From positions 286 through 64,285 of the forward strand of contig CAKQNT010000007.1 in assembly GCA_934255405.1 (NCBI GenBank): DNA of 64,000 bases, in the 5' to 3' direction. The notes beneath the pieces are model-generated. The model did not search any database. It had not been told where the DNA came from and saw only the letters and a program-made list of their open reading frames with translations. The position numbers and the translations under genes are program-made. The stretch comes from an uncultured Alphaproteobacteria bacterium (GTDB lineage: Bacteria; Pseudomonadota; Alphaproteobacteria; RF32; CAG-239). How positions within the stretch are numbered: the stretch's first letter is position 1; each line of letters opens with the position of its first letter. Of the stretch, positions 9,572-41,438 are shown piece after piece.

Positions 9572-10394
9572 TCAAAGCCTTAAATATCAGGCAAAGCTTT
9601 GTTGGTCTGCCCAAATGCGGTTTCGGCGAGATAATCTCCCAGCCGCGGTTTTGCATTATGTCAAAATAGCGTTTATAAATATATGCAATCATTTTTACCT
9701 GTCTGGCCGCATTGGGCGGTAGCAGTTTTATTTGCTCATAGGCAATTTTATAGTCTTCTTCGGCAATGCGTGCCAATTCCTCGCGGGCAATCGCCAAATT
9801 TTTGTCGCAGAGTACTTGTTCCGGATTGCGAGAGCCAATTCCGGCTTTATTCAGCAACTCGTTTGGAATATATATGCGTTGAGCTTGAGCATCTTCTTTT
9901 ATATCGCGCAATATATTGGTGATTTGCAACGCCCTTCCCAAAGAGGTAGAAAGCTTTTCGATTAATTTTTCATCGGTGCAGCCAAAAATCCGCAAAGTCA
10001 AACTTCCCGGAACCCCGGCCACCCCGCGGCAGTATTGGTTAAAAGTATTCAAATCCGGCGCCTGCAGCGGGTTTGGCAAATCCATAGAAATACTGTCCAT
10101 CATCTTGATAAATTCAGCTTTGGGCAGCTTAAAACGCATGCAGTTTTTATAAATTTTGCGTCCGATATCGGTAGTTGGAACCTTTTTGTCATAGATGTTG
10201 TCAAGCTCTTTGCGCCATGCTTTAAGCAGTTCCTGTTTTTCTTCAATCGGAGCATCGCCGTCAACAATATCGTCGATATGCCTAAAAAAAGCATAAATTG
10301 TGTACATGGCCTGACGTTTTGCCAGAGGCAACAGCCGCATACTCCAGAAAAAAGAAGTTCCGGATTTTTTGACCATTTTTTTTATATTTTTCAT
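9561..10394 (-). CDS. hpnD: presqualene diphosphate synthase HpnD (squalene/phytoene synthase family)
   Basis: SQS/PSY family motifs (AFFRHIDDIVD, DxxED-like region); start trimmed to MKNIKK.. where it abuts the hpnC stop. Confidence 0.7.
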   Translation of the reverse strand: MKNIKKMVKKSGTSFFWSMRLLPLAKRQAMYTIYAFFRHIDDIVDGDAPIEEKQELLKAWRKELDNIYDKKVPTTDIGRKIYKNCMRFKLPKAEFIKMMDSISMDLPNPLQAPDLNTFNQYCRGVAGVPGSLTLRIFGCTDEKLIEKLSTSLGRALQITNILRDIKEDAQAQRIYIPNELLNKAGIGSRNPEQVLCDKNLAIAREELARIAEEDYKIAYEQIKLLPPNAARQVKMIAYIYKRYFDIMQNRGWEIISPKPHLGRPTKLCLIFKALIGK

Positions 10395-11221
10395 TTGTGA
10401 CTGCGGTTGCACGATTTTGTCCTTGCAAATATGCCTTTCAAAGAGCCCCAAACTAAGGCCGCGCACCAATCAAAGCGGTTTAAGCGGATTGGCGAGGCAA
10501 CAATATCTTTCTGTTCTATCTTTTTTAGCACGAAATTGGTTAAGGAAAAGATAACGCCCAATTCTGCCTTCAGCCGCAAACTGCGCACCAAACACGGCAA
10601 AACCACGGCATCTTGCAACATTGCGCGCAGCCGCCGGCAGATTTCATACTTAAGCGCCCGCAATTGCGGTGTTTCTGCGCTCAAATACAAGTCACTCTTC
10701 GCCACGCCATATTGTTTCAGCATATCTTGCGGCATATAACAACGCTGCAGGCTGCACATATCGGTTTTTAGATCCTGCAGATGATTGCTTATCTGCAAAA
10801 CTGCGCATAATGTTTCTGCAGGCAGATAGGTGGAGGGGTTTTCATTGTGGATTGCCAGCATAAAACGCCCCACCGGCGCCGCGGAATAGCGGCAATAATC
10901 AAGTAACTGCTCCCAAATTTCGATTGTTTCTTCTCGGGCGTCTCGTCGGAATGCGGCCAGCAAGTCTGTATATAAGCTGCTGTCCAGATTCTCAGCGGCA
11001 AATAGCTCTCCGAGTTTGCCGGCAATACTGTCTGTTTGGGCAAAAAAATCTTTTTCGGCTTGCATCAGCAGGCGCAGCTTTTCTTCTGCCTCAATCTCTG
11101 GATTATCGGCAATATCATCTGCCTGCCGTGCCGCCTGATAATAGAGCTGCACCCAAGGCTTAAGCGGAGCCGATACCAGCATTCCCACCGAAAAATTCTC
11201 ATCTTTTGCGGTTTTGCTCAT
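10391..11221 (-). CDS. hpnC: squalene synthase HpnC
   Basis: squalene/phytoene synthase fold with [15 protein letters not shown] (aspartate-rich motif); start placed at [12 protein letters not shown] so that it does not run into trmFO. Confidence 0.7.
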
Positions 11222-12564
11222 AATTGTTTTATCCAATCGTTTATTGCCGCAAGCGCTCGTTCGCAATATGCCTGTTTGCGCTCACCGCCCTTAATTTTGC
11301 GAAATTTGCCGTTAGCGGTGGTCTCGCCGCAGATTGTTGGAAACAGCCCAAAATTTATGTTCATCGGCTGATAATTTTCAATATTGGTAGAGTCTTGCAA
11401 ATGTCCCAGCATTGAGCCTAACGCTGTCACATCAGGCGGCAGAGTCGGCTCCTTATTCAATGCTTCGCAGGCGGCAAAATATCCGGCCAAAAATCCTATT
11501 GCCGCGCTTTCAATATATCCCTCGCAGCCGGTGATTTGTCCGGCAAAAGAAATATTGGGCTTGCTTTTGAGCCGCAAATATTTATCCAACAGCAGCGGGC
11601 TTTTGATAAAGGTGTTTTTATGAATCCCTCCCAGTCTGGCAAAACGCGCGTTTTCCAACCCCGGAATCATGCGGAATATTCGCTGCTGCTCGCCGTGTTT
11701 GAGTTTAGTCTGAAAACCGACCATATTGCGCAGAGTGTCTTCTTTGTTGTCTTGTCGCAACTGCACCACCGCATAAGGTTTGCGCTCCGGATTATGCGGA
11801 TTAGTCAGTCCCACCGGTTTCATCGGCCCAAACAACAGCGTGTCTTTACCGCGTTCTGCCATCACTTCAACCGGCAGACAGCCGTCAAAATATTCGGCCT
11901 TTTCAAAATCATGAAATTCAACCTTTTCGCCATCTAAAAGCGCCTGCACAAAGTTGTAATATTCGTCTTTATCCATTGGGCAGTTAATATAGTCAAATTT
12001 ATCCCCTTTGTCATAGCGCGATTGATACCAGGCTTTGTCAAAGTTTATGCTGTCTTTGTAGATTACCGGAGCAATCGCGTCATAAAAGTTCAGCGATTGA
12101 TTGTCGACCTCTTGCAAAATAGCCTTAATCAAATCTGGTGATGTCAGCGGACCGCTGGCAATAATCCAACGCTCATCGGCGGGAGGAATCTGGCTGATTT
12201 CTTCATTTACAATCTCAATAAGCCGGTGACTGCGCAACCGCTCTGTCACCATTTTGGCAAAGCCGTCTCTGTCCACGGCCAAAGCACCGCCGGCCGGAAC
12301 TTTGGTAGCATCGGCGCATTGCATAATCAACGATCCGGCGCGCCGCATCTCTTCGTGTAGCAAACCGACTGCGCTGGCTGCGGCGTCATCAGAGCGCAGA
12401 GAGTTTGAGCAAACCAACTCGGCGCAATATTGGGTCTTGTGTGCCGGAGAATATTTGAGCGGGCGCATCTCATGGATTATAACTCTAATGCCTCGCTCTG
12501 CCAACTGCCAAGCGGCCTCAGAGCCGGCCAAACCGGCGCCGGCGATGTGTATTGTTTTTGCCAT
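11218..12564 (-). CDS. trmFO: methylenetetrahydrofolate--tRNA-(uracil54-C5)-methyltransferase TrmFO
   Basis: N-terminal FAD motif [16 protein letters not shown], ~445 aa, Gid/TrmFO-specific conserved blocks. Confidence 0.85.
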
Positions 12565-12708
12565 TTTTGTTTCCTCAATCCAGAATAGAGGTTTTTATAG
12601 CTTTTTTGTGCTCAATTGTAAACAAAAACTTCCTATGTGATAAGTTAAGCATAATGTTTGCCATTGATAATAAATACGGCTATAGTGAAACAAATTAGAT
12701 AAGAGTAT

Positions 12709-13851
12709 ATGTTAATGATGCCGCGTTTTGTTGTTATCGGGCTGGTGGCCCTGGCTTTTGTGAATCCCGCTTTTGCCAGCGAGGATGAAGATCCGTTTAT
12801 CTTCGGCGATGAGGTCCCCGCTGATGTTGCCGAGACCGATTCTGTTGTTCCGGCGGAACCTGTCAGCTGGCATGAGGAGAGCGCGCCGGCATTGCGCAGC
12901 ACTCCCGCGGTTGAAGGCGATTTTGCGCCGCCGTCGTCCGAGCTCACACCACCAGCGCAAGAGCTGCCGGATTTGCCGGAGCTTCCGCCATATCCGCAGT
13001 CTCCGGCAGTAGAGAATGTTCCGGCTCCACAGCCCCAAATCTCCAAAGAACAGACCCTGACCGAAACCCTCAAGCAGGATCCCAAGGTTGCCAATCCGGT
13101 GCTTCCGTCCAAAGTTGAGGATTCTTGGGTTGGCAAACTGGCGACCAAAAATCCGCTTTCTCTTATCAGCGGCGACAAAGATTCCGGAGATTCTGCCAGC
13201 CTTGAAAAAATGGTGGATACCGCCCGCACTAACCAAAACGCCAATCGTCGTTCTAATGCTTCGGTTTTTGATATCTCGGGTGTAATGTTACGCATGAGCC
13301 TCAAACAGGTGGATCGCGTTATGCAGAACCGCGGTTTTCGCAAAATTGTGCAAAAATACCAGATTCCCAACTTTATTAAGTGGCGTAATGAGGAGTTTTG
13401 CCGCAACACAGGCGTGGTTGGCTATGAGCGGATAGAGAGCTGCGTCACCCAAAAAGCCAAAAAAGAGAGCCACCAATATGTGCAGACGGCCAAATACGCC
13501 AAATATGACACCAAAGAGGAGATGGAAGTAACTTTTTCCAGCAATTTCACCGATAACAAAGTAATTAAAATCGTTTATCGCAGTCAGGCCGCCAATGTCA
13601 CCGGCAATAGTCCCAAGGCCACCTATTTGCGCAATATAAAAGTTTATGATTTTTGGAAAAAAATTAACCAAAAGTATGGTAAGCCTGATGATAAAGAGAA
13701 CGTAACCTGGGGAATTGGCGGCAACAAGCCGTTTCTTAAGGCTGCCACCGGCTACCTTAAGCTGGAGGACCCCATGCTGCGAGAGTTGGATTATACCCGT
13801 ATGTCGCGCGAAGATCAGCGCTATATGAATACGGATTTATATAGTTTTTAG
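12709..13851 (+). CDS. secreted proline-rich hypothetical protein
   Basis: signal peptide (MMPRFVVIGLVALAFVNPAFA), acidic/Pro-rich N-terminal half, basic C-terminal half; no family recognised. Confidence 0.45.
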   Translation: MLMMPRFVVIGLVALAFVNPAFASEDEDPFIFGDEVPADVAETDSVVPAEPVSWHEESAPALRSTPAVEGDFAPPSSELTPPAQELPDLPELPPYPQSPAVENVPAPQPQISKEQTLTETLKQDPKVANPVLPSKVEDSWVGKLATKNPLSLISGDKDSGDSASLEKMVDTARTNQNANRRSNASVFDISGVMLRMSLKQVDRVMQNRGFRKIVQKYQIPNFIKWRNEEFCRNTGVVGYERIESCVTQKAKKESHQYVQTAKYAKYDTKEEMEVTFSSNFTDNKVIKIVYRSQAANVTGNSPKATYLRNIKVYDFWKKINQKYGKPDDKENVTWGIGGNKPFLKAATGYLKLEDPMLRELDYTRMSREDQRYMNTDLYSF

Positions 13852-19765: not shown

Positions 19766-19857
19766 TGGCGGATGAGGAGGGATTTGAACCCCCGATACAG
19801 GTCACCCCGTATACACGATTTCGAGTCGCGCGCATTCAGCCTCTCTGCCACTCATCC
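19766..19857 (-). tRNA. tRNA-Ser (anticodon CGA)
   Basis: reverse complement folds as a class II tRNA: acceptor GGATGAG/CTCATCC, anticodon loop CTCGAAA, long variable arm, TTCAAAT T-loop, encoded CCA. Confidence 0.85.
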
Positions 19858-20024
19858 AGTATGTGTTTATTACTCTAAAATAATTATTGTCTCACCAACC
19901 GTCAATGCGCGCTCTACGGGCTGCGCCCTCTCGCGCTTAATTGGCTCATCCATTCTCCGAATGGCTATCGCCTTATCTATTAAATGTTTTCTTTATAATT
20001 TGCAAGTATAATTTTTGTTCTTTG

Positions 20025-26529: not shown

Positions 26530-26577
26530 GCAAGTTTTTGCTAAAAAAAGAGGTTGCATTTTTATGCAGCCTCTTTT
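26530..26577. repeat. left direct repeat bounding the low-GC island (also a hairpin terminator)
   Basis: GCAAGTTTTTGCTAAAAAAAGAGGTTGCATTTTTATGCAGCCTCTTTT; the same sequence with a divergent loop recurs at 31807-31855. Confidence 0.7.
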
Positions 26578-26676
26578 GGATTTTATAAGAATATTTGTTT
26601 TTTGCTGAAAATATAGACAAAACTCAAAATATGTGGTAAAATGCCTCCATACATTGCAACAAACAAGGAGATTAAA

Positions 26677-28344
26677 ATGGCTGAGAACCAGAACGAAAGT
26701 GATAAAGAAATTTATTGGTGCAGCATTAATGCTACCAACAAGATTCTTGCAGACAAGATGGAGGCGCGTGGATACCAATTAAAACATGTAGGTAACAGCT
26801 GTTTTGAAAGCAGAAATATCTATGTTATCAAAACAGAAGATGAGATTTTAACGCCTGAAGTCTTTGAAAAAATGCAACAAGATCTAGAAGAGTGCAAGTT
26901 AGAAGCTACAGAAGACAAATTAAAAGCATTCGATCAGTATTTTGATGAACAATCAGTAGATAAAAATAAAGTTTATTCTCTTGTTAAAACAGGATACAAT
27001 TATGATCAAACACGTATTCAAAATAGTGATAAATACGAAACAGTAGCGGAAGACATCATTGCTTATACAGGGGATGGCCGCACAGGCTATCGCCATACAT
27101 ATCAAAGTTTGGTGTTTCACGTAGATCGAATAATAAATGATAAACGAAATTTTATTACAATAGAAGTACCGCAAAATATGATAGGTATGCTTGTTGGTAA
27201 AGGTGGTAGAAACATTAAAAAACTCGAGGAAAGATTTGGAAAAAGATTTAGAGTTGTGCAATCGGCCAAAGAAAAAGAAGAACAAAAAATACAAAAGCAT
27301 AAAGAGGATTTGCAACAACTGCGCAGTGATGTGATAGACACCGTCGGCGACTTTGTTTTGACTGCCAACGAACAAGATTTGCAAAAAGCTGTCGTTGATT
27401 ATATGGAAGTCAACAAACATTCTCTGCCTTTTATTCCTAGTGTTGAAGAGCTAAAAGGCATTTATGAGAGATTGTGCGAAGTAAAAGAGCTTAGAGTTGC
27501 CGAAGAAGCAGAAAGACGTCAAATGGCATTGGAATCATTACAAATCGATATAGAATATTCCTTTGGTAAAGATATAGTATCTTTTTCCGACGCCGATGTT
27601 GCACAAAAAACGATTGATTATCTGAATGAAAATAAAGACAAGCTTCCGGTAAAACCCAACATGGAAGAGCTGAAAATCATGCAGCAAAATTTATTAACCG
27701 AAAGAGATGAACGAATTGTAGAACAAAAACAAAGAAAGAAGTCTGCCAAAGAAAAAATGTATAGAGCGGCTGATAAAATTATTCACAATTTTGTTTATGA
27801 AAATGATCGTGCAATGCCCTCTGATGAGGTGCTAAAAGCAGGCATTGCTGACTTCTTAGAGCATAATTCAGATGATTCAGATCTTGCGAAAGTAGCAGAC
27901 AATACCGAAAAAGAAATTATTTTGTTATTGCAAAAAGAAAGACATAAAGAGCAAGTGGCGGAGAAAAATTTTAATGATACTGCCACCAAAGTTCTGGAAA
28001 AATTTTTCCATGGCAATGAAAGTCGCGGCCATGGAAAAAAATTTTTCAGTATTATGGGAGAAAACAAACAGGCAGCTGCTTATGATCAATTGGCAAACAG
28101 AATGATGGAAAAGTTGGGATTGTCGGCTGAAGAAGACTACCCTTTACCCACCATCAAATCTATTCAATATGATAAATGCCGTATAGGAATTGAGGATTTT
28201 GAGAAAAGATATTCAGGAACCTGGAGTTATGATGAATATAGCTTACCAGAAACGAAAAAAGAGCAACCGGCAGAGGCAAAAGAGCCTACTTTGGCTAACT
28301 TAGCCGCACTTTGGGGGGCAAAACTGAAAACTCCTAAAAGGTAA
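26677..28344 (+). CDS. KH-domain-containing hypothetical protein (low-GC island)
   Basis: AAGGAG RBS before the Met; type-I KH-like GxxG motif IEVPQNMIGMLVGKGGRNIKKLEERFG; rest is E/K-rich and predicted helical. Confidence 0.45.
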   Translation: MAENQNESDKEIYWCSINATNKILADKMEARGYQLKHVGNSCFESRNIYVIKTEDEILTPEVFEKMQQDLEECKLEATEDKLKAFDQYFDEQSVDKNKVYSLVKTGYNYDQTRIQNSDKYETVAEDIIAYTGDGRTGYRHTYQSLVFHVDRIINDKRNFITIEVPQNMIGMLVGKGGRNIKKLEERFGKRFRVVQSAKEKEEQKIQKHKEDLQQLRSDVIDTVGDFVLTANEQDLQKAVVDYMEVNKHSLPFIPSVEELKGIYERLCEVKELRVAEEAERRQMALESLQIDIEYSFGKDIVSFSDADVAQKTIDYLNENKDKLPVKPNMEELKIMQQNLLTERDERIVEQKQRKKSAKEKMYRAADKIIHNFVYENDRAMPSDEVLKAGIADFLEHNSDDSDLAKVADNTEKEIILLLQKERHKEQVAEKNFNDTATKVLEKFFHGNESRGHGKKFFSIMGENKQAAAYDQLANRMMEKLGLSAEEDYPLPTIKSIQYDKCRIGIEDFEKRYSGTWSYDEYSLPETKKEQPAEAKEPTLANLAALWGAKLKTPKR

Positions 28345-28537
28345 GATATACTTCATTCTTAATTAAAGGGCGGTAAGATTTCTTGCCGCTCTTTTGTTTT
28401 TCCTTGGCAGGCTTATTAGGCAAAAAAGAGGTGAGCCAGACTTGAGAAAAATCGCCAGAACTTCGGTCATTAAAATCAACTTAGTATTTTATGTCATATG
28501 CAGTGCTAATGCCGTTGAGAACACAAGGATTTAAGAA

Positions 28538-28915
28538 ATGACACAGATTTTTGGCCGAGCGTGGCTGTTAGGTCACATTGATTACGTTTGGAATAATCGG
28601 CACAAGCTACAAAACAGACATTGTGCCGAATTTGTTGTTACAGGGTTTGTTATCAATTCCTTCGTCTGCCCTTATTATGGCTACGCGATTGATAAAATAA
28701 CCCTCGGAAACCTAATCAAACTATGGAACAATGGCTTTACTTATAAAGATTTTCCATTAGTTAACTACCGAATATCCCATGGCGATAGTTCCACCAACAT
28801 CGCCTACATCTACCGCGGCAAGGTTTTTAGTCATAGATTTCCTTATTCAGATCCAGATAAATACATTCCAACGGAGGAAGTGAGGAAGATTTTAAAAGAT
28901 TTGCGGAAGCTATGA
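28538..28915 (+). CDS. hypothetical protein (125 aa, island)
   Basis: ORF only; AT-rich. Confidence 0.3.
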   Translation: MTQIFGRAWLLGHIDYVWNNRHKLQNRHCAEFVVTGFVINSFVCPYYGYAIDKITLGNLIKLWNNGFTYKDFPLVNYRISHGDSSTNIAYIYRGKVFSHRFPYSDPDKYIPTEEVRKILKDLRKL

Positions 28916-29033
28916 ATAATGCCAATTATTCATACAATCTTATATAAAGTAAAAATATTTAAAAACTTAATATTACTTGTTGCATTTTTTTTATACACAC
29001 GTATATTACTACTATAATTTCGCGGAAATAGAT

Positions 29034-30143
29034 ATGGAAAAGAAAGATAATTTGGGTTGCTTAAAACGCATAAAAATAAAAGGGTTTAAGTCTATTTCTA
29101 CCCTGAGCATTGATATTGCTCCACTGAATATTATTGTCGGTCCAAATGGTGTTGGTAAAAGTAATTTTGTAGGGATTTTTGACTTATTATATAACATAGG
29201 TGCAAAACAGCTTCAAAAATATATAGCTATAAATGGAGGAGCAAATCGTTTCTTGCATTTTGGTTCTAAAATTACAAACAATGTCTCCATTCAACTAGAT
29301 TTTTCTATTAATCAGTATATATGTAATCTTGTTTATGCTGTTGGAAATAAGTTTATATTTGAAAAAGAAGAAGGTTGCGTTAAAGGAGATTATGTTCCTA
29401 AATGTATTGATTTTACAAAATATGGAGAAGAAGAAACATCCCTTAATGCAACGTCATATTCAATTGCAGGATATATTAAAACATATTTAAGCGGTTTGAA
29501 AAAGTATCATTTTCACGATACAACAAAAGAAAGTCCTTTGAAACAATCAGCCAATAAACGAGACAATATGCAACTTCGTGGAAATGGTTCTAATCTTGCT
29601 GCTATGTTATATAAGTTTAAGAATAATGAAAAATATAAATATGATTATAATCAAATAGTTAAAACAATAAGGCTTGTAGCCCCATTTTTTGATGATTTCA
29701 TATTAGAACCAGATGAAAACGATAATATTTTATTGGCTTGGAAGCACCAAGATTCAGATGAGCATTTTGATTGTTTTGATTTTTCTGACGGCACGTTAAG
29801 ATTTATTGCTTTGGTAACTTTACTGCTACAACCTAATGAATTTATTCCTCAAACAATATTAATTGATGAACCAGAATTGGGCTTACATCCATATGCACTA
29901 AAAATATTAGCTGAATTATTTAAGAATGTTACAAGAAATGGAAAGCAAATTATAGCAACTTCCCAATCGGTATCTTTCATTAATGAATTTAGCTATGAAG
30001 ATATAATAATTGCCGATAGAATTAACGGACAATCTGTTTTTCGTCGTTTAGATAAAGAAGAAGTGCAAAATTGGCTAGATGAGTTTGCTATGGGAGATAT
30101 TTGGGCTCGCAATATTATCGGAGGTATGCCAAATGACTTTTAA
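29034..30143 (+). CDS. ABC/AAA_21-type ATPase (SMC-like, OLD/AbiEii-type ATPase fold)
   Basis: IKIKGFKSI..LNIIVGPNGVGKSNF Walker A; ILIDEPELGLHP Walker B/D-loop; QIIATSQS H-loop region. Confidence 0.7.
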   Translation: MEKKDNLGCLKRIKIKGFKSISTLSIDIAPLNIIVGPNGVGKSNFVGIFDLLYNIGAKQLQKYIAINGGANRFLHFGSKITNNVSIQLDFSINQYICNLVYAVGNKFIFEKEEGCVKGDYVPKCIDFTKYGEEETSLNATSYSIAGYIKTYLSGLKKYHFHDTTKESPLKQSANKRDNMQLRGNGSNLAAMLYKFKNNEKYKYDYNQIVKTIRLVAPFFDDFILEPDENDNILLAWKHQDSDEHFDCFDFSDGTLRFIALVTLLLQPNEFIPQTILIDEPELGLHPYALKILAELFKNVTRNGKQIIATSQSVSFINEFSYEDIIIADRINGQSVFRRLDKEEVQNWLDEFAMGDIWARNIIGGMPNDF

Positions 30144-30723
30144 AAATATCTCAGTCATTTGTGAGGGAACCACAGAAAGTGATTTTATTAAATATTTAAG
30201 CCGTGTCTATTTTGTTCCTAAGCGTATTTGCCTTAAGCCAATAATTATGGATGGTAATGTATCTATAGATAGACTTGTTTATTTTGTTCATAAAGCTAAT
30301 TATCCAATCTCAACTACATTTGTGGATTATTATGGTATTAAAGGTAATCCTCAAGAGAGTTGTGAAGAGTTAGAAGCTCTTTTAAAAGAAAAAGTTAAAA
30401 AAGAACATTTCATTCCTTATTTGCAAAAACATGAGACAGAAGCACTATGGTTTTCAAATATAGATGTTATTAGTGAAGTGAAGAATGCAACATCAGCTCA
30501 ACAAAAAAAATTACAGACTATAATTTCTAACTACCCTAATCCTGAAGATATAAATAACAGCAGAGAGACAGCTCCTTCAAAACGTTTAATGTCTATTTTC
30601 AGTAATTATAATAAAATTATAGATGGTAATAGTATTGCACAAAACATCTCTATTGAGGAAATTAAATTTAAATGTCCTCGTTTTGCTAATTGGTTATCTC
30701 AAATAGAACGAGAAGTATACTAA
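30133..30723 (+). CDS. DUF4276/TOPRIM-like small protein, partner of the ATPase
   Basis: GGAGG RBS; N-terminal VICEGTTESDFIKYL resembles the conserved start of DUF4276 (OLD-type TOPRIM-like); overlaps the ATPase stop. Confidence 0.5.
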   Translation: MTFKNISVICEGTTESDFIKYLSRVYFVPKRICLKPIIMDGNVSIDRLVYFVHKANYPISTTFVDYYGIKGNPQESCEELEALLKEKVKKEHFIPYLQKHETEALWFSNIDVISEVKNATSAQQKKLQTIISNYPNPEDINNSRETAPSKRLMSIFSNYNKIIDGNSIAQNISIEEIKFKCPRFANWLSQIEREVY

Positions 30724-30880
30724 AGCAAGACTAAGAAATTCTTGTATGATAAAAATAAAGCTCTACCGAATTATTTAATTTAATTCAAAATGTTAAACAA
30801 TCCTCTTCATCCCAACAAAGTTTAACATTTTTAAATTTAGGATTATTTTTTGTTCTTTTCCATTTCTTTGGCAAGCTCAT

Positions 30881-31471
30881 TTACGAGCTGCGTATCACGG
30901 TCTTTGTATGCTTGCACCAAAGGAGCATAATATCTTGCGCTTTTGCCTTCACCGACATAAGGAATACGAATAATACTGGATGCTTTTCTTCCTTGCGCAT
31001 AGCCAGTAATGTGGCATAAGAAATTCCAAGAACACTTGCAGTTTGCTTCATATTAAGCCATTTCGTTTTCATCGCAATTTCAAGCTCGGTCTTACTCTTC
31101 GTTGTATCCATATTATTAAGATATAGAATTTCTAATTCTGAAGCACAATCATTGATTTTATGTGCCTTTAAGACTTTTATAAAGCTATGGATGGATTTAT
31201 TAGCCATTTTAACCATTCTTGCTCCGAAAAGCATCTGGCTGATTTTAGCTTTAGTCGGAAGAACAATGTCATTGATTTTGAAATCGGTTAAAAAGAACAT
31301 ATTTTTCCAATTAACCGCAGTAAAATTGACCTCTTCAAAGAATACTTTGCCTTCAAAGATATTATTTTCAAAGGAGCTCTTTAAGAATGATATGTTTGAT
31401 AAACGGAGGTTGGCATTCTTGGCAAATCTGCAATCCTTTAATATCAAGGCATTACTCATGCCTTCTTTCAT
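30881..31471 (-). CDS. hypothetical protein with a pentapeptide-repeat-like N-terminus and an HTH-like C-terminus (possibly degraded)
   Basis: ORF; alternative-frame continuation at the 3' end suggests a frameshifted HTH (GISYATLLAMRKEGK..). Confidence 0.25.
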   Translation of the reverse strand: MKEGMSNALILKDCRFAKNANLRLSNISFLKSSFENNIFEGKVFFEEVNFTAVNWKNMFFLTDFKINDIVLPTKAKISQMLFGARMVKMANKSIHSFIKVLKAHKINDCASELEILYLNNMDTTKSKTELEIAMKTKWLNMKQTASVLGISYATLLAMRKEEKHPVLFVFLMSVKAKAQDIMLLWCKHTKTVIRSS

Positions 31472-31806
31472 GTCATCAAGAGTAACATCCGAATTAAAGA
31501 TAACAGCTTTGATGAAACGACTTTAGGGCTGTTAGATATTGCAACTCAAGCAGGAAATATCTTTGATAAGTCGCAGAATCTTGAACTAAAGAGATTGTTG
31601 TTGAAATTTGTCTTTGAGAGCCTGACTTTAACCGAAGGCGTATTAACTTATAAACTGAAGTTTCCGTTTAATGAATTTGTTAATAGTAACATTTTGACGG
31701 CACAGGCTGCCAAAGCATACGAACCGAACCAAACTATTGCAAATCAAGGCTTAACTGAACATGGTAACGAAAATGTACAGTTCGGGTATTTAAAATCGTT
31801 AGAACC

Positions 31807-31855
31807 GCAAGTTTTTGCTAAAAAAAGAGGTTACATTGAAAAATGCAGCCTCTTT
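31807..31855. repeat. right direct repeat bounding the island; terminator of tRNA-Glu
   Basis: GCAAGTTTTTGCTAAAAAAAGAGGTTACATTGAAAAATGCAGCCTCTTT lies immediately 3' of tRNA-Glu. Confidence 0.7.
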
Positions 31856-31861
31856 CAAAAT

Positions 31862-31937
31862 TGGTGATCCCAACCAGAATCGAACTGGTGTTCTCGCCGT
31901 GAGAGGGCGATGTCCTAGGCCGCTAGACGATGGGACC
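31862..31937 (-). tRNA. tRNA-Glu (anticodon CUC)
   Basis: reverse complement GGTCCCATCGTCTAGCGGCCTAGGACATCGCCCTCTCACGGCGAGAACACCAGTTCGATTCTGGTTGGGATCACCA; Glu-type D-arm; anticodon loop CTCTCAC; encoded CCA. Confidence 0.85.
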
Positions 31938-32021: not shown

Positions 32022-33596
32022 TTATTGCACATGGTTTAGCATATATACGTTGTCAAATCCCCGCTGTGCCAGAATCTGATAAGCGATATAGGCTCCGTAG
32101 CCGCTGTTGTCGTACAATGCCATTTTCTTGTTTTTGGGCAGTAGCGGATAACTTTCGCGCAGATATGGCAACGGAAAGTTTATGGCTCCGGGCTGATGAC
32201 CTCTGGCGAAGCTTTCCGGAGAGCGAATGTCCACCAGCAAAGTGTCTTTGTCAATTGCAGAAAGAGTGTGCAACTTGCCGGATAAGACTTCTTGCGCCAG
32301 AGAGCCGAGATTGTTTAGGGCGTCTTTGGCATTTGCAAATGGCGGAGAATATGCAACCTCCAGATTTATTAAATCACTTATTGAGCCGCCCCGCTGAATA
32401 AGAGCGCTTACGGCATTAATCCGTTCCGGCACTCCGGCCTTGCCGACTGCTTGAAAACCCAATATTTGCCCATCTGCGGCAAACAGCAGCTTGAGGTGTA
32501 GTTTTTGCGCGTTGGGATAATATCCGGCATGATTGTTTTGCCGCAGATACAAACGATGATATTTTATTCCTGCCGCTTGTAATTTTGCCTCTGAACATCC
32601 GGTTGTCGCCGCGATGTAATCAAAAACCTTAATAATATCTGTGCCGATAAAATTAGAAAATTCGCCTTTTTCTCCACAAATATGGTCTGCGGCAACCCGA
32701 GCTTGTTTGAGGGCTGAAGATGCGTTGCTCCAGCGCTCGGGACGGTTGGTGATTTTGTTGATAATCTCCACATTATCGCCACAGGCGTAGATATCGGCAT
32801 CGTTAGTTTGCATAAATTTGTTGGTTTTGATGCCGCCGCTTTGCCCAACTCCCAAATCCGCCATAATCGGGAGTTTAATATCCGGTTTGTTTCCGGTGGC
32901 GATAATTGCCATATCGTATTTTAGCTTTTTCCCGCTGCTTAGCTTGACCTCTGTAGAGCCAAATGATCGAACTTGCGTGTTGAGATAGAGTTTTATTCCT
33001 TTGTCCTGAAGCTCTTGTTCAACAATTTCTGCCATATCCTTATCCATGTTTGGCAAAATATGGTTGCTCATATCAATCAGATATACTTTTGCCTTGAGCG
33101 CAGAAAAAGCCTCGGCGGCTTCAATGCCGACACTGCCGGCGCCCAGAATCAGAACTCGCAAAGCGCCGGTGCCAAAATAATAATCGCGAATTTTGCCAAT
33201 GCCAGAAATCGAACGAATTGTAAATATATTGTCTCCCAAAATTCCATTGATATCCGGCCTTAGTTGCAAGGCGCCGGTAGCAATTATGAGCTTGTCATAA
33301 GTCTCGGATTGGTGGTTGAGTATCATCACTCTTTTTTCGGAGCGATCAATTCCTATCACTTCATTTTCCAAGCGAACATCTATACGAAAAACGTCGCGCA
33401 TTTGTTCGATTGTTGCGCCGATTAATTCGTCTTTACTCTTAATCAAACCCGCAAGCAAATAGGTGAGTCCGCAGTTTGCAACCGCAAATTCATCGCTTTT
33501 TTCCAGCACAATGATTTGCGCTTTTTCGTTCATTCGTCGTAGTCTGGTTGCGGCAGAAATTCCGGCGCTGCCGCCGCCGATAATCACTACTTTCAT
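32022..33596 (-). CDS. CoA-disulfide reductase/NADH oxidase-family FAD oxidoreductase with C-terminal rhodanese-like domain
   Basis: VVIIGGGSAG FAD motif; redox-active VANCGLTY cysteine; second NAD(P) Rossmann (LILGAGSVGIE); C-terminal ~100-aa rhodanese-like domain lacking a catalytic Cys. Confidence 0.75.
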   Translation of the reverse strand: MKVVIIGGGSAGISAATRLRRMNEKAQIIVLEKSDEFAVANCGLTYLLAGLIKSKDELIGATIEQMRDVFRIDVRLENEVIGIDRSEKRVMILNHQSETYDKLIIATGALQLRPDINGILGDNIFTIRSISGIGKIRDYYFGTGALRVLILGAGSVGIEAAEAFSALKAKVYLIDMSNHILPNMDKDMAEIVEQELQDKGIKLYLNTQVRSFGSTEVKLSSGKKLKYDMAIIATGNKPDIKLPIMADLGVGQSGGIKTNKFMQTNDADIYACGDNVEIINKITNRPERWSNASSALKQARVAADHICGEKGEFSNFIGTDIIKVFDYIAATTGCSEAKLQAAGIKYHRLYLRQNNHAGYYPNAQKLHLKLLFAADGQILGFQAVGKAGVPERINAVSALIQRGGSISDLINLEVAYSPPFANAKDALNNLGSLAQEVLSGKLHTLSAIDKDTLLVDIRSPESFARGHQPGAINFPLPYLRESYPLLPKNKKMALYDNSGYGAYIAYQILAQRGFDNVYMLNHVQ

Positions 33597-38584: not shown

Positions 38585-40885
38585 ATGCGTGGAATTTGCT
38601 TGACGTTAGCACTAGTTTTAACCAGCACATTGGTCATGGCAAGGTCATATTTTCTGCCTGATTATCAAGGAGCCGGCCTTGAGCATCGTATCCAAAAGAC
38701 AGATAACCAAACCAGCACCATCACCTGTTCTACTTATGGATTGTATAATTCAATCCAAAGCGGTATGACCTGCAGCGTAGTATATCCGGCTTCCGGTCTA
38801 ACCTGCTACACTTGTTCCTGTGATAGCATATATAAATACAGTTCTGCCGATTGTCCAACCCCACCTTATATTTTATCCGATCAATGCAAAGGCAAATATA
38901 AAAGCTGCAGTTGTGACACAACATTATATCCGACCACTTTGGCAACCGGTGGCTGCCCATATGGTTTTATTCCGGATATAAATAATTATTGCGAGGACAA
39001 GCCAGATGGCACCAAACACTATGCCTGTGTTAAACCGGTGTGCAAACCGGATAATATTACGGTAGAAGATTGCCAAGCCCAAGGCGATGGTCATAACTGC
39101 ACGGCTTCTAAAGAAGCAAATTGCACCGACTATTGCGATAGTAATGGCTGTCAGGATAACTGCGCCTATTTAAAACAAACCGGACAAGCACTCTCAAACT
39201 GTCAATATGGCTGTGCTGTCGGCAAAGAAGTCAGCGGTTGCCCAGATTTATGCTATGAATGCGGAGATGCGCCGGAATCCCTGACCGATACTTGTGCGGA
39301 TATTTATGACGGCAAAAGCAATACCAAGGCAATCATCAGCCAGCTGGGAGCAGATGTGCTGGCGGCAACCGCGGCGAATCAATATTATGTCGGTGATAAG
39401 AATGGTGATTTTGGACAAGGCAAATGGTATCTGCCGAGTATTGGCGAACTGGTTGATATGTACGGCACTGATATGTTTAATATATTCGGCGGCAGCGGCA
39501 CAAGCGGTGCAACTGGTAGCTATCTGAGAGAAATTAATGACGCCCTTACTACCCTGTATGACAAAGGCGTTGATACTGATATTCTGTCAGATAGCTATTG
39601 GTCGTCATCAGAACATTCCGCGAATCATGTCTGGACATTAACGGTTTCTTCTGCCAATGGTTCGGGTAACCGCTCTTATGCCCTAAAAGATTATTCAGAT
39701 CATACTTATGTTCGCCCATTCTTGAAAGTTGAAGGTTTACCGTTAAACAGAGCTATTATCGGAAAAGTTCTGTATGATGATAAAACTTGGGATGTTGCAG
39801 GTAGATATTACAGTGGGAACGGTAAGAAACCGGTTGGAATAATTGCCACGATTAATGAAAGAGATAAATTGGTTACAATTGTCAGCCTTAAGAATTTGAC
39901 TTTCAGCACCACAGACAGCAGCAGTAACTTTGATGCCGACAATCCTTATAGCGGTAAGTATGAAGAGAGTACTTGGGCATCGTATGATAAGAGAGAAGTA
40001 AATGTTACTGCCGTTCCCAATTATAGTAGTGACCAACTCAAGAGTATGCTGAGACAATGTACCGCTGGTGAGGCGGAAATCGGCTGTCCTCTTGCTAGTA
40101 TTTCGGTGTCGACCGTATTTGACGGCAAAAGCAATACGCAGAAAATTGTAACACAATTGGGCGAAAAGGGGCTAGCAGCTTATGCCGCCACCCAATTCTA
40201 TGTTGGTGATAAAAACGGCACTTTTGGCCAAGGCACTTGGTACTTACCTGCTATTGGTGAACTGATTGAAATGTATGGCGTTGATTATAGCAAAATAACA
40301 TCCTCCATAGGCACATCAGGTGTGCTTGGTGGGTATATGAAAAGAATTAATACTGCTCTAGAAGCATTAAAAGCTAAAGGAGTCGAGGCTGAAGCAACGA
40401 ACAATCGTGGTTATTGGTCGTCTTCTGAGGAAGGCGATAACGGTGCTTGGGTACTCTGGATAAGTGGTCTCTTCAGTGATGGCAATCGTAATCCTACCAA
40501 TAAGGATTATGGGGAGGGCGTTAGGCCTTTTCAGCTTGTAGAAAATTGCTTTAACCCTGCAATCGGTTCAACACCAAAAATCGGCGATGTTATGTATGAA
40601 GACAAAACTTGGGGCTCGGCCGAGGATTATGATGGGAGCAAAACTCCAGTCGGAATAGTTGTTGCTGTATCGACAGTTTCCGGCTCAGTAAAGATTATCA
40701 ACCTCAAGGATTTAACCTTTAGCTCCGATTACAGTGTCGGCAACTTTGATCCAGATAATCCGTATGGCGGATATTATAAAACCGTATTCTGGGCTAGAAG
40801 AAAGATAGGGAATATTAACGATCTTGGCGACGTTATTTCTAGTACAGTTTTTAAAGCTTTTAGGTACTGTTTTGTCGAGTGGTAA
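38585..40885 (+). CDS. secreted Cys-rich protein with two tandem DUF1566 (Lcl C-terminal-like) repeat modules
   Basis: signal peptide; ~40 Cys in the first 230 aa; two ~280-aa repeats each with a ..DGKSNT..QLG....A...YYVGDKNG.FGQG.WYLP.IGEL..MYG.. core matching the W.LP...EL motif of DUF1566. Confidence 0.5.
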   Translation: MRGICLTLALVLTSTLVMARSYFLPDYQGAGLEHRIQKTDNQTSTITCSTYGLYNSIQSGMTCSVVYPASGLTCYTCSCDSIYKYSSADCPTPPYILSDQCKGKYKSCSCDTTLYPTTLATGGCPYGFIPDINNYCEDKPDGTKHYACVKPVCKPDNITVEDCQAQGDGHNCTASKEANCTDYCDSNGCQDNCAYLKQTGQALSNCQYGCAVGKEVSGCPDLCYECGDAPESLTDTCADIYDGKSNTKAIISQLGADVLAATAANQYYVGDKNGDFGQGKWYLPSIGELVDMYGTDMFNIFGGSGTSGATGSYLREINDALTTLYDKGVDTDILSDSYWSSSEHSANHVWTLTVSSANGSGNRSYALKDYSDHTYVRPFLKVEGLPLNRAIIGKVLYDDKTWDVAGRYYSGNGKKPVGIIATINERDKLVTIVSLKNLTFSTTDSSSNFDADNPYSGKYEESTWASYDKREVNVTAVPNYSSDQLKSMLRQCTAGEAEIGCPLASISVSTVFDGKSNTQKIVTQLGEKGLAAYAATQFYVGDKNGTFGQGTWYLPAIGELIEMYGVDYSKITSSIGTSGVLGGYMKRINTALEALKAKGVEAEATNNRGYWSSSEEGDNGAWVLWISGLFSDGNRNPTNKDYGEGVRPFQLVENCFNPAIGSTPKIGDVMYEDKTWGSAEDYDGSKTPVGIVVAVSTVSGSVKIINLKDLTFSSDYSVGNFDPDNPYGGYYKTVFWARRKIGNINDLGDVISSTVFKAFRYCFVEW

Positions 40886-40909
40886 GTAGATTGTCACACT
40901 ATGCTTCTT

Positions 40910-41009
40910 TATCACCCCTACCTTAATCCTTCCCCGTCGAGGGGAAGGATAGGGAGAGTGCCATATAAGTCTTCCCCCTCGACGGGGGAAGATTTAGATG
41001 GGGGTGATA
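40910..41009. repeat. nested palindromic element: outer 9-bp inverted repeat enclosing two CCTTCCCC-N5-GGGGAAGG-type hairpins
   Basis: TATCACCCC...GGGGTGATA outer arms; inner CCTTCCCCGTCGAGGGGAAGG and TCTTCCCCCTCGACGGGGGAAGA. Confidence 0.6.
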
Positions 41010-41069
41010 AAGGAGCAATGTTATTGCCCGAGCTTCGGCAGCCGTCTTCCCTAAGGTCATTGCCCGAGC

Positions 41070-41127
41070 AGCGGTAGCCGCGAGAAGCAATCCATCTTTA
41101 TCTTGAGGCAAAAATGGATTGCTTCGG
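41070..41127. repeat. dispersed repeat family B copy (GAGAAGCAATCCAT...ATGGATTGCTTC inverted repeat)
   Basis: AGCGGTAGCCGCGAGAAGCAATCCATCTTTATCTTGAGGCAAAAATGGATTGCTTCGGC. Confidence 0.6.
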
Positions 41128-41438
41128 CTATAATTTCACCCCTATCCAAACCGTCTAGCTTAGTAAGTTCGCAAAGCTCACTAACCGCGCGTCGGTCACT
41201 TGTTCACTAGTTTCGCTGCGTTTGCTCACGCCTCACTAGCTCAACAAGTAAACTTACATCGCTTGCGGTAAAAACAACCGGAGCAACGGTTGTTTTTATC
41301 CTCGCGCCCTGTCAAGGGGAAAGGCTTATTGGGGTTAAATTTTTAAACAGGCACTATTCCGAGCGCCGAGCCAACGGCGAGCAAGCGAGTAACAGCAAAG
41401 TCAGCGCCGCCCGCCGTCGCGGGCGAGTAACAGCTTGC

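Follow-up and report, generated by a model that had tools for sequence, protein, structure and literature searches.

A 64,000-nucleotide stretch of DNA from an uncultured alphaproteobacterium (contig CAKQNT010000007.1 of assembly GCA_934255405.1; the whole stretch is called here the window) contains, next to a gene for tRNA-Glu(CUC), an island of low G+C content (GC) that lies between two copies of a hairpin sequence. This island, which with the tRNA gene spans positions 26,530 to 31,937, is probably a non-autonomous, decayed remnant of integrative elements that encode a large serine recombinase (LSR) and target the 3' (CCA) ends of tRNA genes in uncultured gut bacteria. As such it is an ordinary kind of genomic island, no longer self-mobile, and a member of an already known kind. 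Its recombinase gene, however, is not altogether absent: it encoded an LSR, and its last ~110 codons survive next to the right repeat; the same gene is intact in relatives of the element.

The island and its insertion site

The features at the borders of the island are as follows.

26530-26576, no strand assigned: left repeat copy (H0), a 47-nt hairpin of the same type as the single copy in strains whose site is empty; terminator-like on both strands.
31499-31867, plus strand: 3' remnant of the LSR gene, an open reading frame (ORF) that continues across the right repeat and has its stop codon within the tRNA gene; its Resolvase and Recombinase domains are deleted.
31807-31855, no strand assigned: right repeat copy (H1), an element-type hairpin of 49 nt, the present terminator of tRNA-Glu.
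31862-31937, minus strand: tRNA-Glu(CUC), intact, with its CCA end toward the island; the same gene is present at empty sites.

The original prediction, made from the sequence without database searches, had pointed to a low-GC island bracketed by direct repeats of ~48 bp, and both features hold up under measurement. The 5,230-bp segment between the repeats (26577-31806) has a GC content of 33.4%, versus 44.2% in the rest of the window. This value lies below the minimum of the 194 other intervals of 5.23 kb (mean 44.0%, sd 2.5%, minimum 38.2%), and the local GC drops from 0.42-0.49 in the flanks to 0.28-0.38 at ~26.5-31.8 kb. When the two repeat copies are aligned, their first 26 nt and last 13 nt are identical; the remainder differs by one G/A change in the stem and by the loop, which is TTT in one copy and GAAAA in the other. 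The 26-nt left half of the repeat is found at only two sites in the 64 kb, even with 3 mismatches allowed (chance expectation 0), and the two other tRNA genes of the window lack the motif. Within the window, the repeat is thus not a terminator dispersed over many loci. On the minus strand, which also carries the tRNA gene (identified with ARAGORN), both copies fold into a stem followed by U7, the shape of an intrinsic terminator (z about -3 to -4). The 3' end of tRNA-Glu(CUC) lies 6 nt from the right copy, which is indeed the terminator hairpin that had been proposed for this tRNA. The repeats themselves contain no tRNA sequence and end 6 nt before the gene.

Contigs from the same locus were recovered by exact-protein look-ups with the flanking genes for GtrA and a CoA-disulfide reductase (CoADR). 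Four contigs from Hadza gut metagenomes (L001, L002, L005 and L006) contain the island at 100% identity to the window; all island copies found are identical and occupy this single locus. In three conspecific contigs (L007, L034 and L032), a single repeat copy lies between GtrA and tRNA-Glu, CoADR comes next, and the island is absent. The flanks of these empty sites are 98.3/99.0% (L007), 98.4/99.5% (L034) and 97.1/97.2% (L032) identical to the window, and the single repeat of L007 differs from H0 only in the second base. The island is therefore a strain-specific insertion at the tRNA-Glu(CUC) terminator. Both expectations raised by the original prediction are answered here: an empty site with one repeat copy exists at the same tRNA-Glu locus, and strains that are 97-99% identical do not share the genes of the island. 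The spacer between the single repeat and tRNA-Glu is CAAAAT in L007 and L034 and GATAT in L032. The hairpin of L032 (reverse strand, ~9790-9840) has the loop TAAAAAA, which is element-like and unlike that of L007 and L034; it may be the relic of a different element variant. In a fourth variant, L035 (1930-3486), unrelated low-GC DNA begins exactly at the CCA end of tRNA-Glu. This insert, on a contig too short to reach the other end, encodes a UDG-MazG fusion protein and a small ORF and has a GC-rich hairpin of its own. Because L035 carries unrelated DNA from the CCA end onward, the tRNA-Glu site is considered a hotspot of insertion.

The recombinase remnants and their full-length relatives

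The island had been described as having no integrase. This is correct in that no functional recombinase is present, and incorrect in that recombinase sequence does remain, both as the LSR remnant (31499-31867) and as a second, much shorter trace:

28505-28534, plus strand: end of a Phage_integrase-family gene, consisting of its last 10 codons (NAVENTRI-stop), which are tyrosine-recombinase-like; the gene, of 194 aa, is complete in L038-L041.

The contigs L037-L041 encode proteins at least 90% identical to the HEC-01A protein of the window, in each case inside a much larger element. In L038 (contig ERZ27239273:k119_68754) the LSR is intact: a protein of ~565 aa that starts with MKAIILTRVST, which includes the catalytic TRVST motif, and contains the Resolvase (PF00239) and Recombinase (PF07508) domains. 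Window positions 31499-31828 match aa 405-514 of the annotated 553-aa ORF of L038, with 89 of 110 residues identical (81%, BLASTP E=8e-60). Thus, the window retains only the last ~110-122 codons of the LSR gene, located at the right repeat and devoid of a catalytic domain; tblastn detects no other LSR sequence within the 64 kb, and no ORF of the island has a Phage_integrase domain by Pfam.

The element of L038 consists, in order, of genes for a ResIII helicase, a helix-turn-helix (HTH) protein with 22-bp iterons, ankyrin proteins, DUF3768 and DUF1737 proteins, the 194-aa Phage_integrase-family protein, the 125-aa protein, HEC-01A and HEC-01B, an opposite-strand 539-aa pentapeptide/HTH protein, three small genes and the LSR, followed by tRNA-Lys(UUU). 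The right 3.4 kb of the island is collinear with the elements of L037-L041, which end in an intact LSR gene, and aligns to L038 (blastn) in three blocks:

Window 28505-30832, corresponding to L038 9472-11792 (91%).
Window 30843-31498, corresponding to L038 11882-12541 (81%).
Window 31498-31885, corresponding to L038 16583-16972 (82%), the 3' end of the LSR gene.

Window position 28505 (L038 9472), where homology to L038 sets in, falls within the last 30 nt of the 194-aa gene. At the other end, the second and third blocks abut in the window while L038 12541-16583 is missing. This alignment thus shows one deletion of ~4 kb, which removed LSR codons 1-404, the three small genes and codons 1-318 of the HTH gene. 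A tRNA-targeted element with a lost recombinase, as had been proposed, is therefore what is found, with the refinement that the recombinase is an LSR and not a classical tyrosine integrase.

Beside the 172-aa HTH gene, the full-length elements have four to five tandem 22-bp iterons (GGCACGTATATCCGGTTT...), at 5092-5197 in L038, 4439-4544 in L037 and 4372-4477 in L039; these hint at a plasmid-like replication origin. Searches of viral contigs detected no relatives of the HTH protein, the KH protein or the L038 LSR, and the island has no blastn match to annotated phages and plasmids. Relatives of the LSR on annotated plasmids are at most 37% identical.

The repeat as the end of the recombinase gene

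The LSR ORF of L037-L040 ends in the same hairpin (AAGAGGTTACATTAAAAAATGCAACCTCT), the spacer CCAAAT and TGGTGA, and this end abuts tRNA-Lys. The "A" in the stem and the A-rich loop of H1 are shared with the element copies of L038 and L037, and H0 matches the single copies of L007 and L034. The repeat is thus the 3' end of the LSR gene, which doubles as a terminator and replaces the tRNA's own. Since the hairpin ends the LSR gene in relatives located at other tRNAs, it is borne by the element and is not simply a duplicated target. Exact scans for the repeat yield nothing in viral contigs and four unrelated chance matches in JGI metagenomes.

A search with the L038 LSR returns ~700 homologues at E<=1e-20 in public assemblies. 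Most come from gut metagenomes, and the few with a named source are assigned to "Alphaproteobacteria bacterium"; proteins of metagenome-assembled genomes (MAGs) related to those of the element are likewise labelled Alphaproteobacteria. The C-termini of the best 120 of these ~700 homologues (P0039-P0158) were sorted into junction classes. The homologues are conserved up to ...LQIG/VQSG (= ...CAAATTGG) and then diverge. About 75 of the 120 continue directly as antisense tRNA: one group matches the tRNA-Glu(UUC) of L042, another the read-through of tRNA-Lys(UUU) in L038, and several further groups bear the IRT/DSN signature of a T-loop. In contrast to these, 22-23 of the 120 (class A) end in a conserved tail of ~35 aa, ...F[LY]E.R.EI[LI]A[LM][KR]E...LAA-stop. 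The rest are truncated or have other junctions. Judged from these sequences, the antisense-tRNA class would represent attR junctions, in which the element is joined to its target, and the conserved-tail class attP-type junctions. Because of this reading of the two tail classes, attP is placed inside the LSR ORF, with the crossover at or near the CCA end.

A probable composite of two remnants

The left part of the island contains two further features.

26577-28418, plus strand: segment E1, with a KH-domain gene (26677-28344, 555 aa) and its own plus-strand terminator (28365-28394).
28419-28482, plus strand: internal attP-like relic, composed of GGCAAAAAAGAGGT, the core GGTGAGCCAGACT and the start of an LSR C-terminal tail (EPDLRKIARTSVIKINL).

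The core of the relic (28430-28482 with the sequence that follows it) matches the attP core of contig L045 at 13 of 13 positions; the spacing is conserved, and identity over the 40 nt that follow is ~70%. The relic encodes EPDLRKIARTSVIKINL, versus EPDSRKIAQKLVININFFL in class-A tails, and is detected by tblastn with the tail of P0125 (E=0.002). The 14 nt before the core (GGCAAAAAAGAGGT) weakly resemble the left half of the repeat. This tail-coding half is placed as expected in an integrated element: the HEC-01 segment separates it from the LSR remnant, which lies 3.4 kb downstream. The KH segment (26577-28418) would then lie outside that element. We infer that the island consists of two stacked remnants, the KH segment and the HEC-01 segment, joined at the attP-like relic. 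Contigs with class-A tails offer possible parallels. In L045 an intact class-A LSR is followed by genes for a KAP NTPase and an AAA_14 protein and then by tRNA-Glu(UUC), and in L046 LSR fragments with a class-A tail are followed by cargo comprising SNF2, DUF4391 and methylase genes; by their gene order, both look like tandem arrays.

Cargo genes

The cargo had been listed as a KH-domain protein, a 125-aa ORF, an ATPase/DUF4276 pair and a decayed HTH ORF, and this list is accurate. To the right of segment E1, the genes are as follows.

28538-28915, plus strand: 125-aa ORF, conserved just before HEC-01A both here and in L038-L041.
29034-30143, plus strand: HEC-01A, an intact ABC-type (AAA_21/AAA_15) ATPase of 369 aa.
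30133-30723, plus strand: HEC-01B, an intact DUF4276 (TOPRIM-like) protein of 196 aa, whose gene overlaps that of HEC-01A by 11 nt.
30843-31504, minus strand: HTH pseudogene, pentapeptide-like with a Xis-type HTH; its N-terminal 318 codons are deleted and a frameshift follows the HTH.

HEC-01A matches PADLOC model PDLC04175 (E=5e-130) over positions 5-362 of 363 and Pfam AAA_21 (E=2.5e-26); its match to the NCBIfam model MAD3 (E=2.5e-26) falls under the cut-off of that model. HEC-01B matches PADLOC PDLC04188 (E=5e-53) and Pfam PF14103 (DUF4276) over positions 1-192 of 192 (E=1.5e-39). DUF4276 has been placed in the TOPRIM superfamily and corresponds to the Mad4 family of MADS (PMC12065111). 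Like HEC-01, MAD3-MAD4, OLD, PARIS and Gabija, the pair combines an ABC ATPase with a TOPRIM-like protein, here DUF4276, in two genes, which in the window overlap and give full-length matches to the profile models. It is thus a candidate for an ATPase-controlled anti-phage nuclease, as in OLD, PARIS and Gabija. Unlike pairs embedded in an Hma or MADS locus, the pair in the window stands alone. The PADLOC definition of HEC-01 does not include the 125-aa gene that precedes the pair here and in L038-L041; no such gene is called in L037. This ORF, which has no match in Pfam, PADLOC, PHROGs or NCBIfam and whose single-sequence structure model is unusable (pLDDT 43), might be a third component of this HEC-01 variant. 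Compared with L038, the ratio of nonsynonymous to synonymous substitution rates (dN/dS) is 0.06 for HEC-01A (95% aa identity), 0.09 for HEC-01B and 0.09 for the 125-aa ORF (86% aa identity), and all three genes are intact and under purifying selection relative to L038 (0.06-0.09).

The HTH gene, in contrast to these intact genes, has decayed. The 539-aa protein of L038 aligns with it by tblastn in two different frames (aa 319-492 and aa 492-538); the intact relatives P0007-P0009 continue "...RKEDKASGIIRIPYVGEGKSTRYY...", a stretch that the window codes in another frame. The 196-aa ORF of the original prediction (30881-31471) is part of this pseudogene, and its product has a weak match to phrog_66, an excisionase/regulator family (E=0.002).

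Segment E1 is not homologous to L038-type elements; the GC content of 26577-28504 is 35.7%. The KH protein (Pfam KH_1, E=4e-7) belongs to a family of six members, as only 5 homologues were found, at 49-59% identity. Its structure model (pLDDT 74.5) contains a KH domain followed by long helical repeats, and has no significant PDB match beyond a similarity to the KH domains of NusA. In three of the four contexts examined, KH genes lie beside LSR relics or tRNA-Glu, the exception being L014-L016. In L012 and L013 (L012 7741-9739), the KH gene is followed within ~100 bp by a frameshifted LSR relic (aa 472-550) that has a class-A-like junction. In L042 (region 10001-13822), the KH gene is 1.6 kb from tRNA-Glu(UUC) and near the gene for a 1742-aa polyvalent (LPD23/LPD3) protein. 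By this gene context, the KH-domain family is a passenger of mobile elements. A role as a cryptic recombinase was also considered for the KH protein and for the 125-aa protein, and was rejected, there being no domain, fold or context signal and an actual recombinase remnant having been found.

Proposed history and alternatives

The proposed history begins with an LSR element that would integrate at the 3' end of a tRNA gene, so that the hairpin at the end of its own recombinase gene comes to adjoin the tRNA. Integration at the CCA ends of tRNA-Glu(UUC), tRNA-Glu(CUC), tRNA-Lys(UUU) and others would swap the ~35-aa tail of the LSR for read-through into the tRNA, and each event would hand the tRNA a new terminator. 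The H0 of the "empty" strains would then be the relic of an older element, and the "empty" site would already be occupied; H0 is read in this way because the region to which its sequence belongs is protein-coding and conserved throughout the LSR family. Because the new junction resembles the old site (that is, it is attB-like), further elements could insert, and older ones would therefore move outward and decay. Direct repeats that mark successive element ends follow from such serial integration, since each event brings a new copy to the tRNA. The stacked elements would decay into defence islets, and the species' "native" tRNA-Glu terminator would itself be the exapted 3' end of a recombinase gene. 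In its present form the island would be immobile unless a related LSR acts in trans, and it would supply the terminator of tRNA-Glu. For a full-length element, the predicted left end consists of a host-side hairpin or tRNA-downstream DNA, then the core (TGGTGAGCC...), then the tail-coding sequence (...FFL.HRSE.LAMKEQVQMIKGLLAA, stop). Taken jointly, these propositions (an undescribed LSR family, attP in the 3' end of the ORF, integration at the CCA end, serial stacking and an exapted tRNA-Glu terminator) are put forward tentatively; it is somewhat more probable that the combination fails in some part than that it holds throughout.

Several observations weigh against this history. The left junction, H0-TGGATTTT, lacks the CAAAAT spacer expected for integration at the CCA end, which would place the crossover within the last 13 nt of the repeat, unless a 6-bp loss or a deletion of the left end occurred later. 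The crossover is bracketed only to these last 13 nt or to the TGG of the CCA end. In addition, the att sites of LSRs normally share few bases, so that near-identity over 47 nt is atypical and depends on the idea that H0 is a relic. The element-like loop of the L032 hairpin indicates that host and element copies cannot be told apart cleanly by loop type. The class-A junctions seen in context (L045 and L046) are chromosomal, and no circular attP form is demonstrated. There is no second hairpin inside L037-L039, whose left ends (attL) fall outside the DNA recovered, and no intermediate strain with the KH segment alone was found. Finally, as to the cargo, the one published test of the HEC-01 pair of ABC ATPase and TOPRIM proteins, in E. 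coli, found no protection (bioRxiv 10.1101/2024.01.29.577857).

Of the other explanations, the one with the most in its favour is that the island is a functional satellite whose outer repeats are usable att sites, the whole 5.3 kb being moved in trans by a related LSR. Both outer hairpins are complete and share 26 + 13 nt without a mismatch, the insertion relative to the empty site is exactly one repeat-bounded unit, and the LSR family is large (the ~700 homologues at E<=1e-20). However, the left end lacks the tail-coding P' half of the family's attP junctions, which is instead internal (28430-28482) and truncated; the interior has two deletion scars and a frameshifted pseudogene; and there is no LSR in the 64-kb window, all island copies being identical and at one locus. 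An active satellite is thus unlikely. A reversed polarity is less likely still; an ancestral island would then have been lost from the single-repeat sites through homologous recombination between the 47-nt repeats. The near-identity of the repeats could allow rare RecA-dependent deletion, and only three empty-site strains were examined. Yet L007 and L034 bear the loop and stem of the left copy, so that the crossover of such a deletion would need to fall in the last 13 nt and not in the first 26; identity to the window ranges over 97-99.5% among the empty-site strains and is 100% for every island copy; and the foreign composition and gene content of the island argue against its ancestral presence.

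The position at a tRNA 3' end between direct repeats is also the textbook pattern of a classical tyrosine-integrase island whose integrase gene was deleted, and the 30-nt Phage_integrase-family trace at 28505-28534 could be taken as its remnant. In relatives, though, that gene encodes a small protein of 194 aa and lies inside the element, 7.5 kb from its end; it is the LSR gene that abuts the repeat and the tRNA, and the repeats lack tRNA sequence. This explanation is accordingly given hardly any weight. The least probable of all, to which almost no credence can be attached, is that there is no mobile element, only a generic dispersed host terminator and a local dip in GC. Both repeat copies are terminator-like, as this would require, but within 64 kb the motif occurs only twice and not at the other two tRNAs of the window, empty sites exist, and the repeat motif, where it occurs elsewhere, is part of LSR genes.

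Other loci of note in the window

The CoADR-rhodanese gene on the far side of tRNA-Glu (32022-33596) has matches of at most 38% identity among 185,579 species-representative genomes, all in other phyla and mostly in Firmicutes-type MAGs; either the species is unrepresented in that genome set or the gene itself was imported. A repetitive, Lcl_C-like surface-type gene at ~39200-41400 encodes 766 aa in the strain of the window versus 1102 aa in L032 (1704-5012); its internal repeats are ~70-75% identical, and the locus is variable in length. Just past tRNA-Ser(CGA) (19766-19857), at 19903-19968, the alignment with L034 breaks at a difference of ~65 bp, and the adjoining small gene encodes 173 or 189 aa depending on the strain. 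The flank of this tRNA may be a further small site of variation.

Relation to known systems and significance

Cis-mobilizable elements (CIMEs) such as those related to ICESt1 and ICESt3 of Streptococcus thermophilus are flanked by att sites, have lost their recombination genes, and undergo accretion and deletion at one site. They stem from integrative and conjugative elements that use a tyrosine integrase and insert at the 3' end of fda. Unlike CIMEs, the island has no conjugation genes or functional left att half that could be found, and its mobilization in cis is unproven. The integrase gene of SSV1-type fuselloviruses contains attP and is split upon integration, although that enzyme is a tyrosine recombinase and the split falls in the gene body. 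The LSR ORF here likewise seems to span attP, and only the C-terminal ~35-40 aa would be exchanged.

Like the LSRs of phiC31 and Bxb1 and the Ccr proteins of SCCmec, the relatives of the island encode a Resolvase + Recombinase LSR (~565 aa) at the end of the element, by att. Described LSRs mostly use protein-coding or intergenic targets and have very short common cores (PMC10083194, PMC10654092); in mycobacteria, tRNA sites are used by tyrosine integrases (PMC10083194), and a large survey of LSRs does not mention tRNA (PMC10654092). The junctions considered here differ in lying at a tRNA CCA end, in an attP apparently within the ORF, and in an arm of ~47 nt common to the host site. No description of LSR use at tRNA CCA ends with attP apparently in the ORF was found in the literature.

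The closest described phenomenon is that of the tycheposons, which form tRNA islands in Prochlorococcus. There, later arrivals displace earlier ones deeper into the island, which holds degenerate remnants, fragmented integrases and partial att repeats (bioRxiv 10.1101/2020.12.28.424599). Of 937 tycheposons, 27 have an LSR and most have tyrosine recombinases, and their repeats are partial copies of the tRNA (bioRxiv 10.1101/2020.12.28.424599). Integration at tRNAs, stacking and degenerate remnants are common to both. Unlike in tycheposons, the repeat here is the 3' end of the recombinase gene, with its terminator, outside the tRNA. Further differences are the hosts (gut bacteria) and the cargo (mostly of the defence type).

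In itself the island is routine, and serves as a worked example in which a "missing integrase" can be traced to a deletion. If the LSR gene does span attP, integration would alter the C-terminus of the enzyme, possibly as a built-in switch between the integrated and the free state. The proposed history, if true, would also account for the way in which defence islets build up by tRNAs in poorly known gut bacteria, and LSRs that target tRNAs, with long and readable att arms, would join the known integrases.

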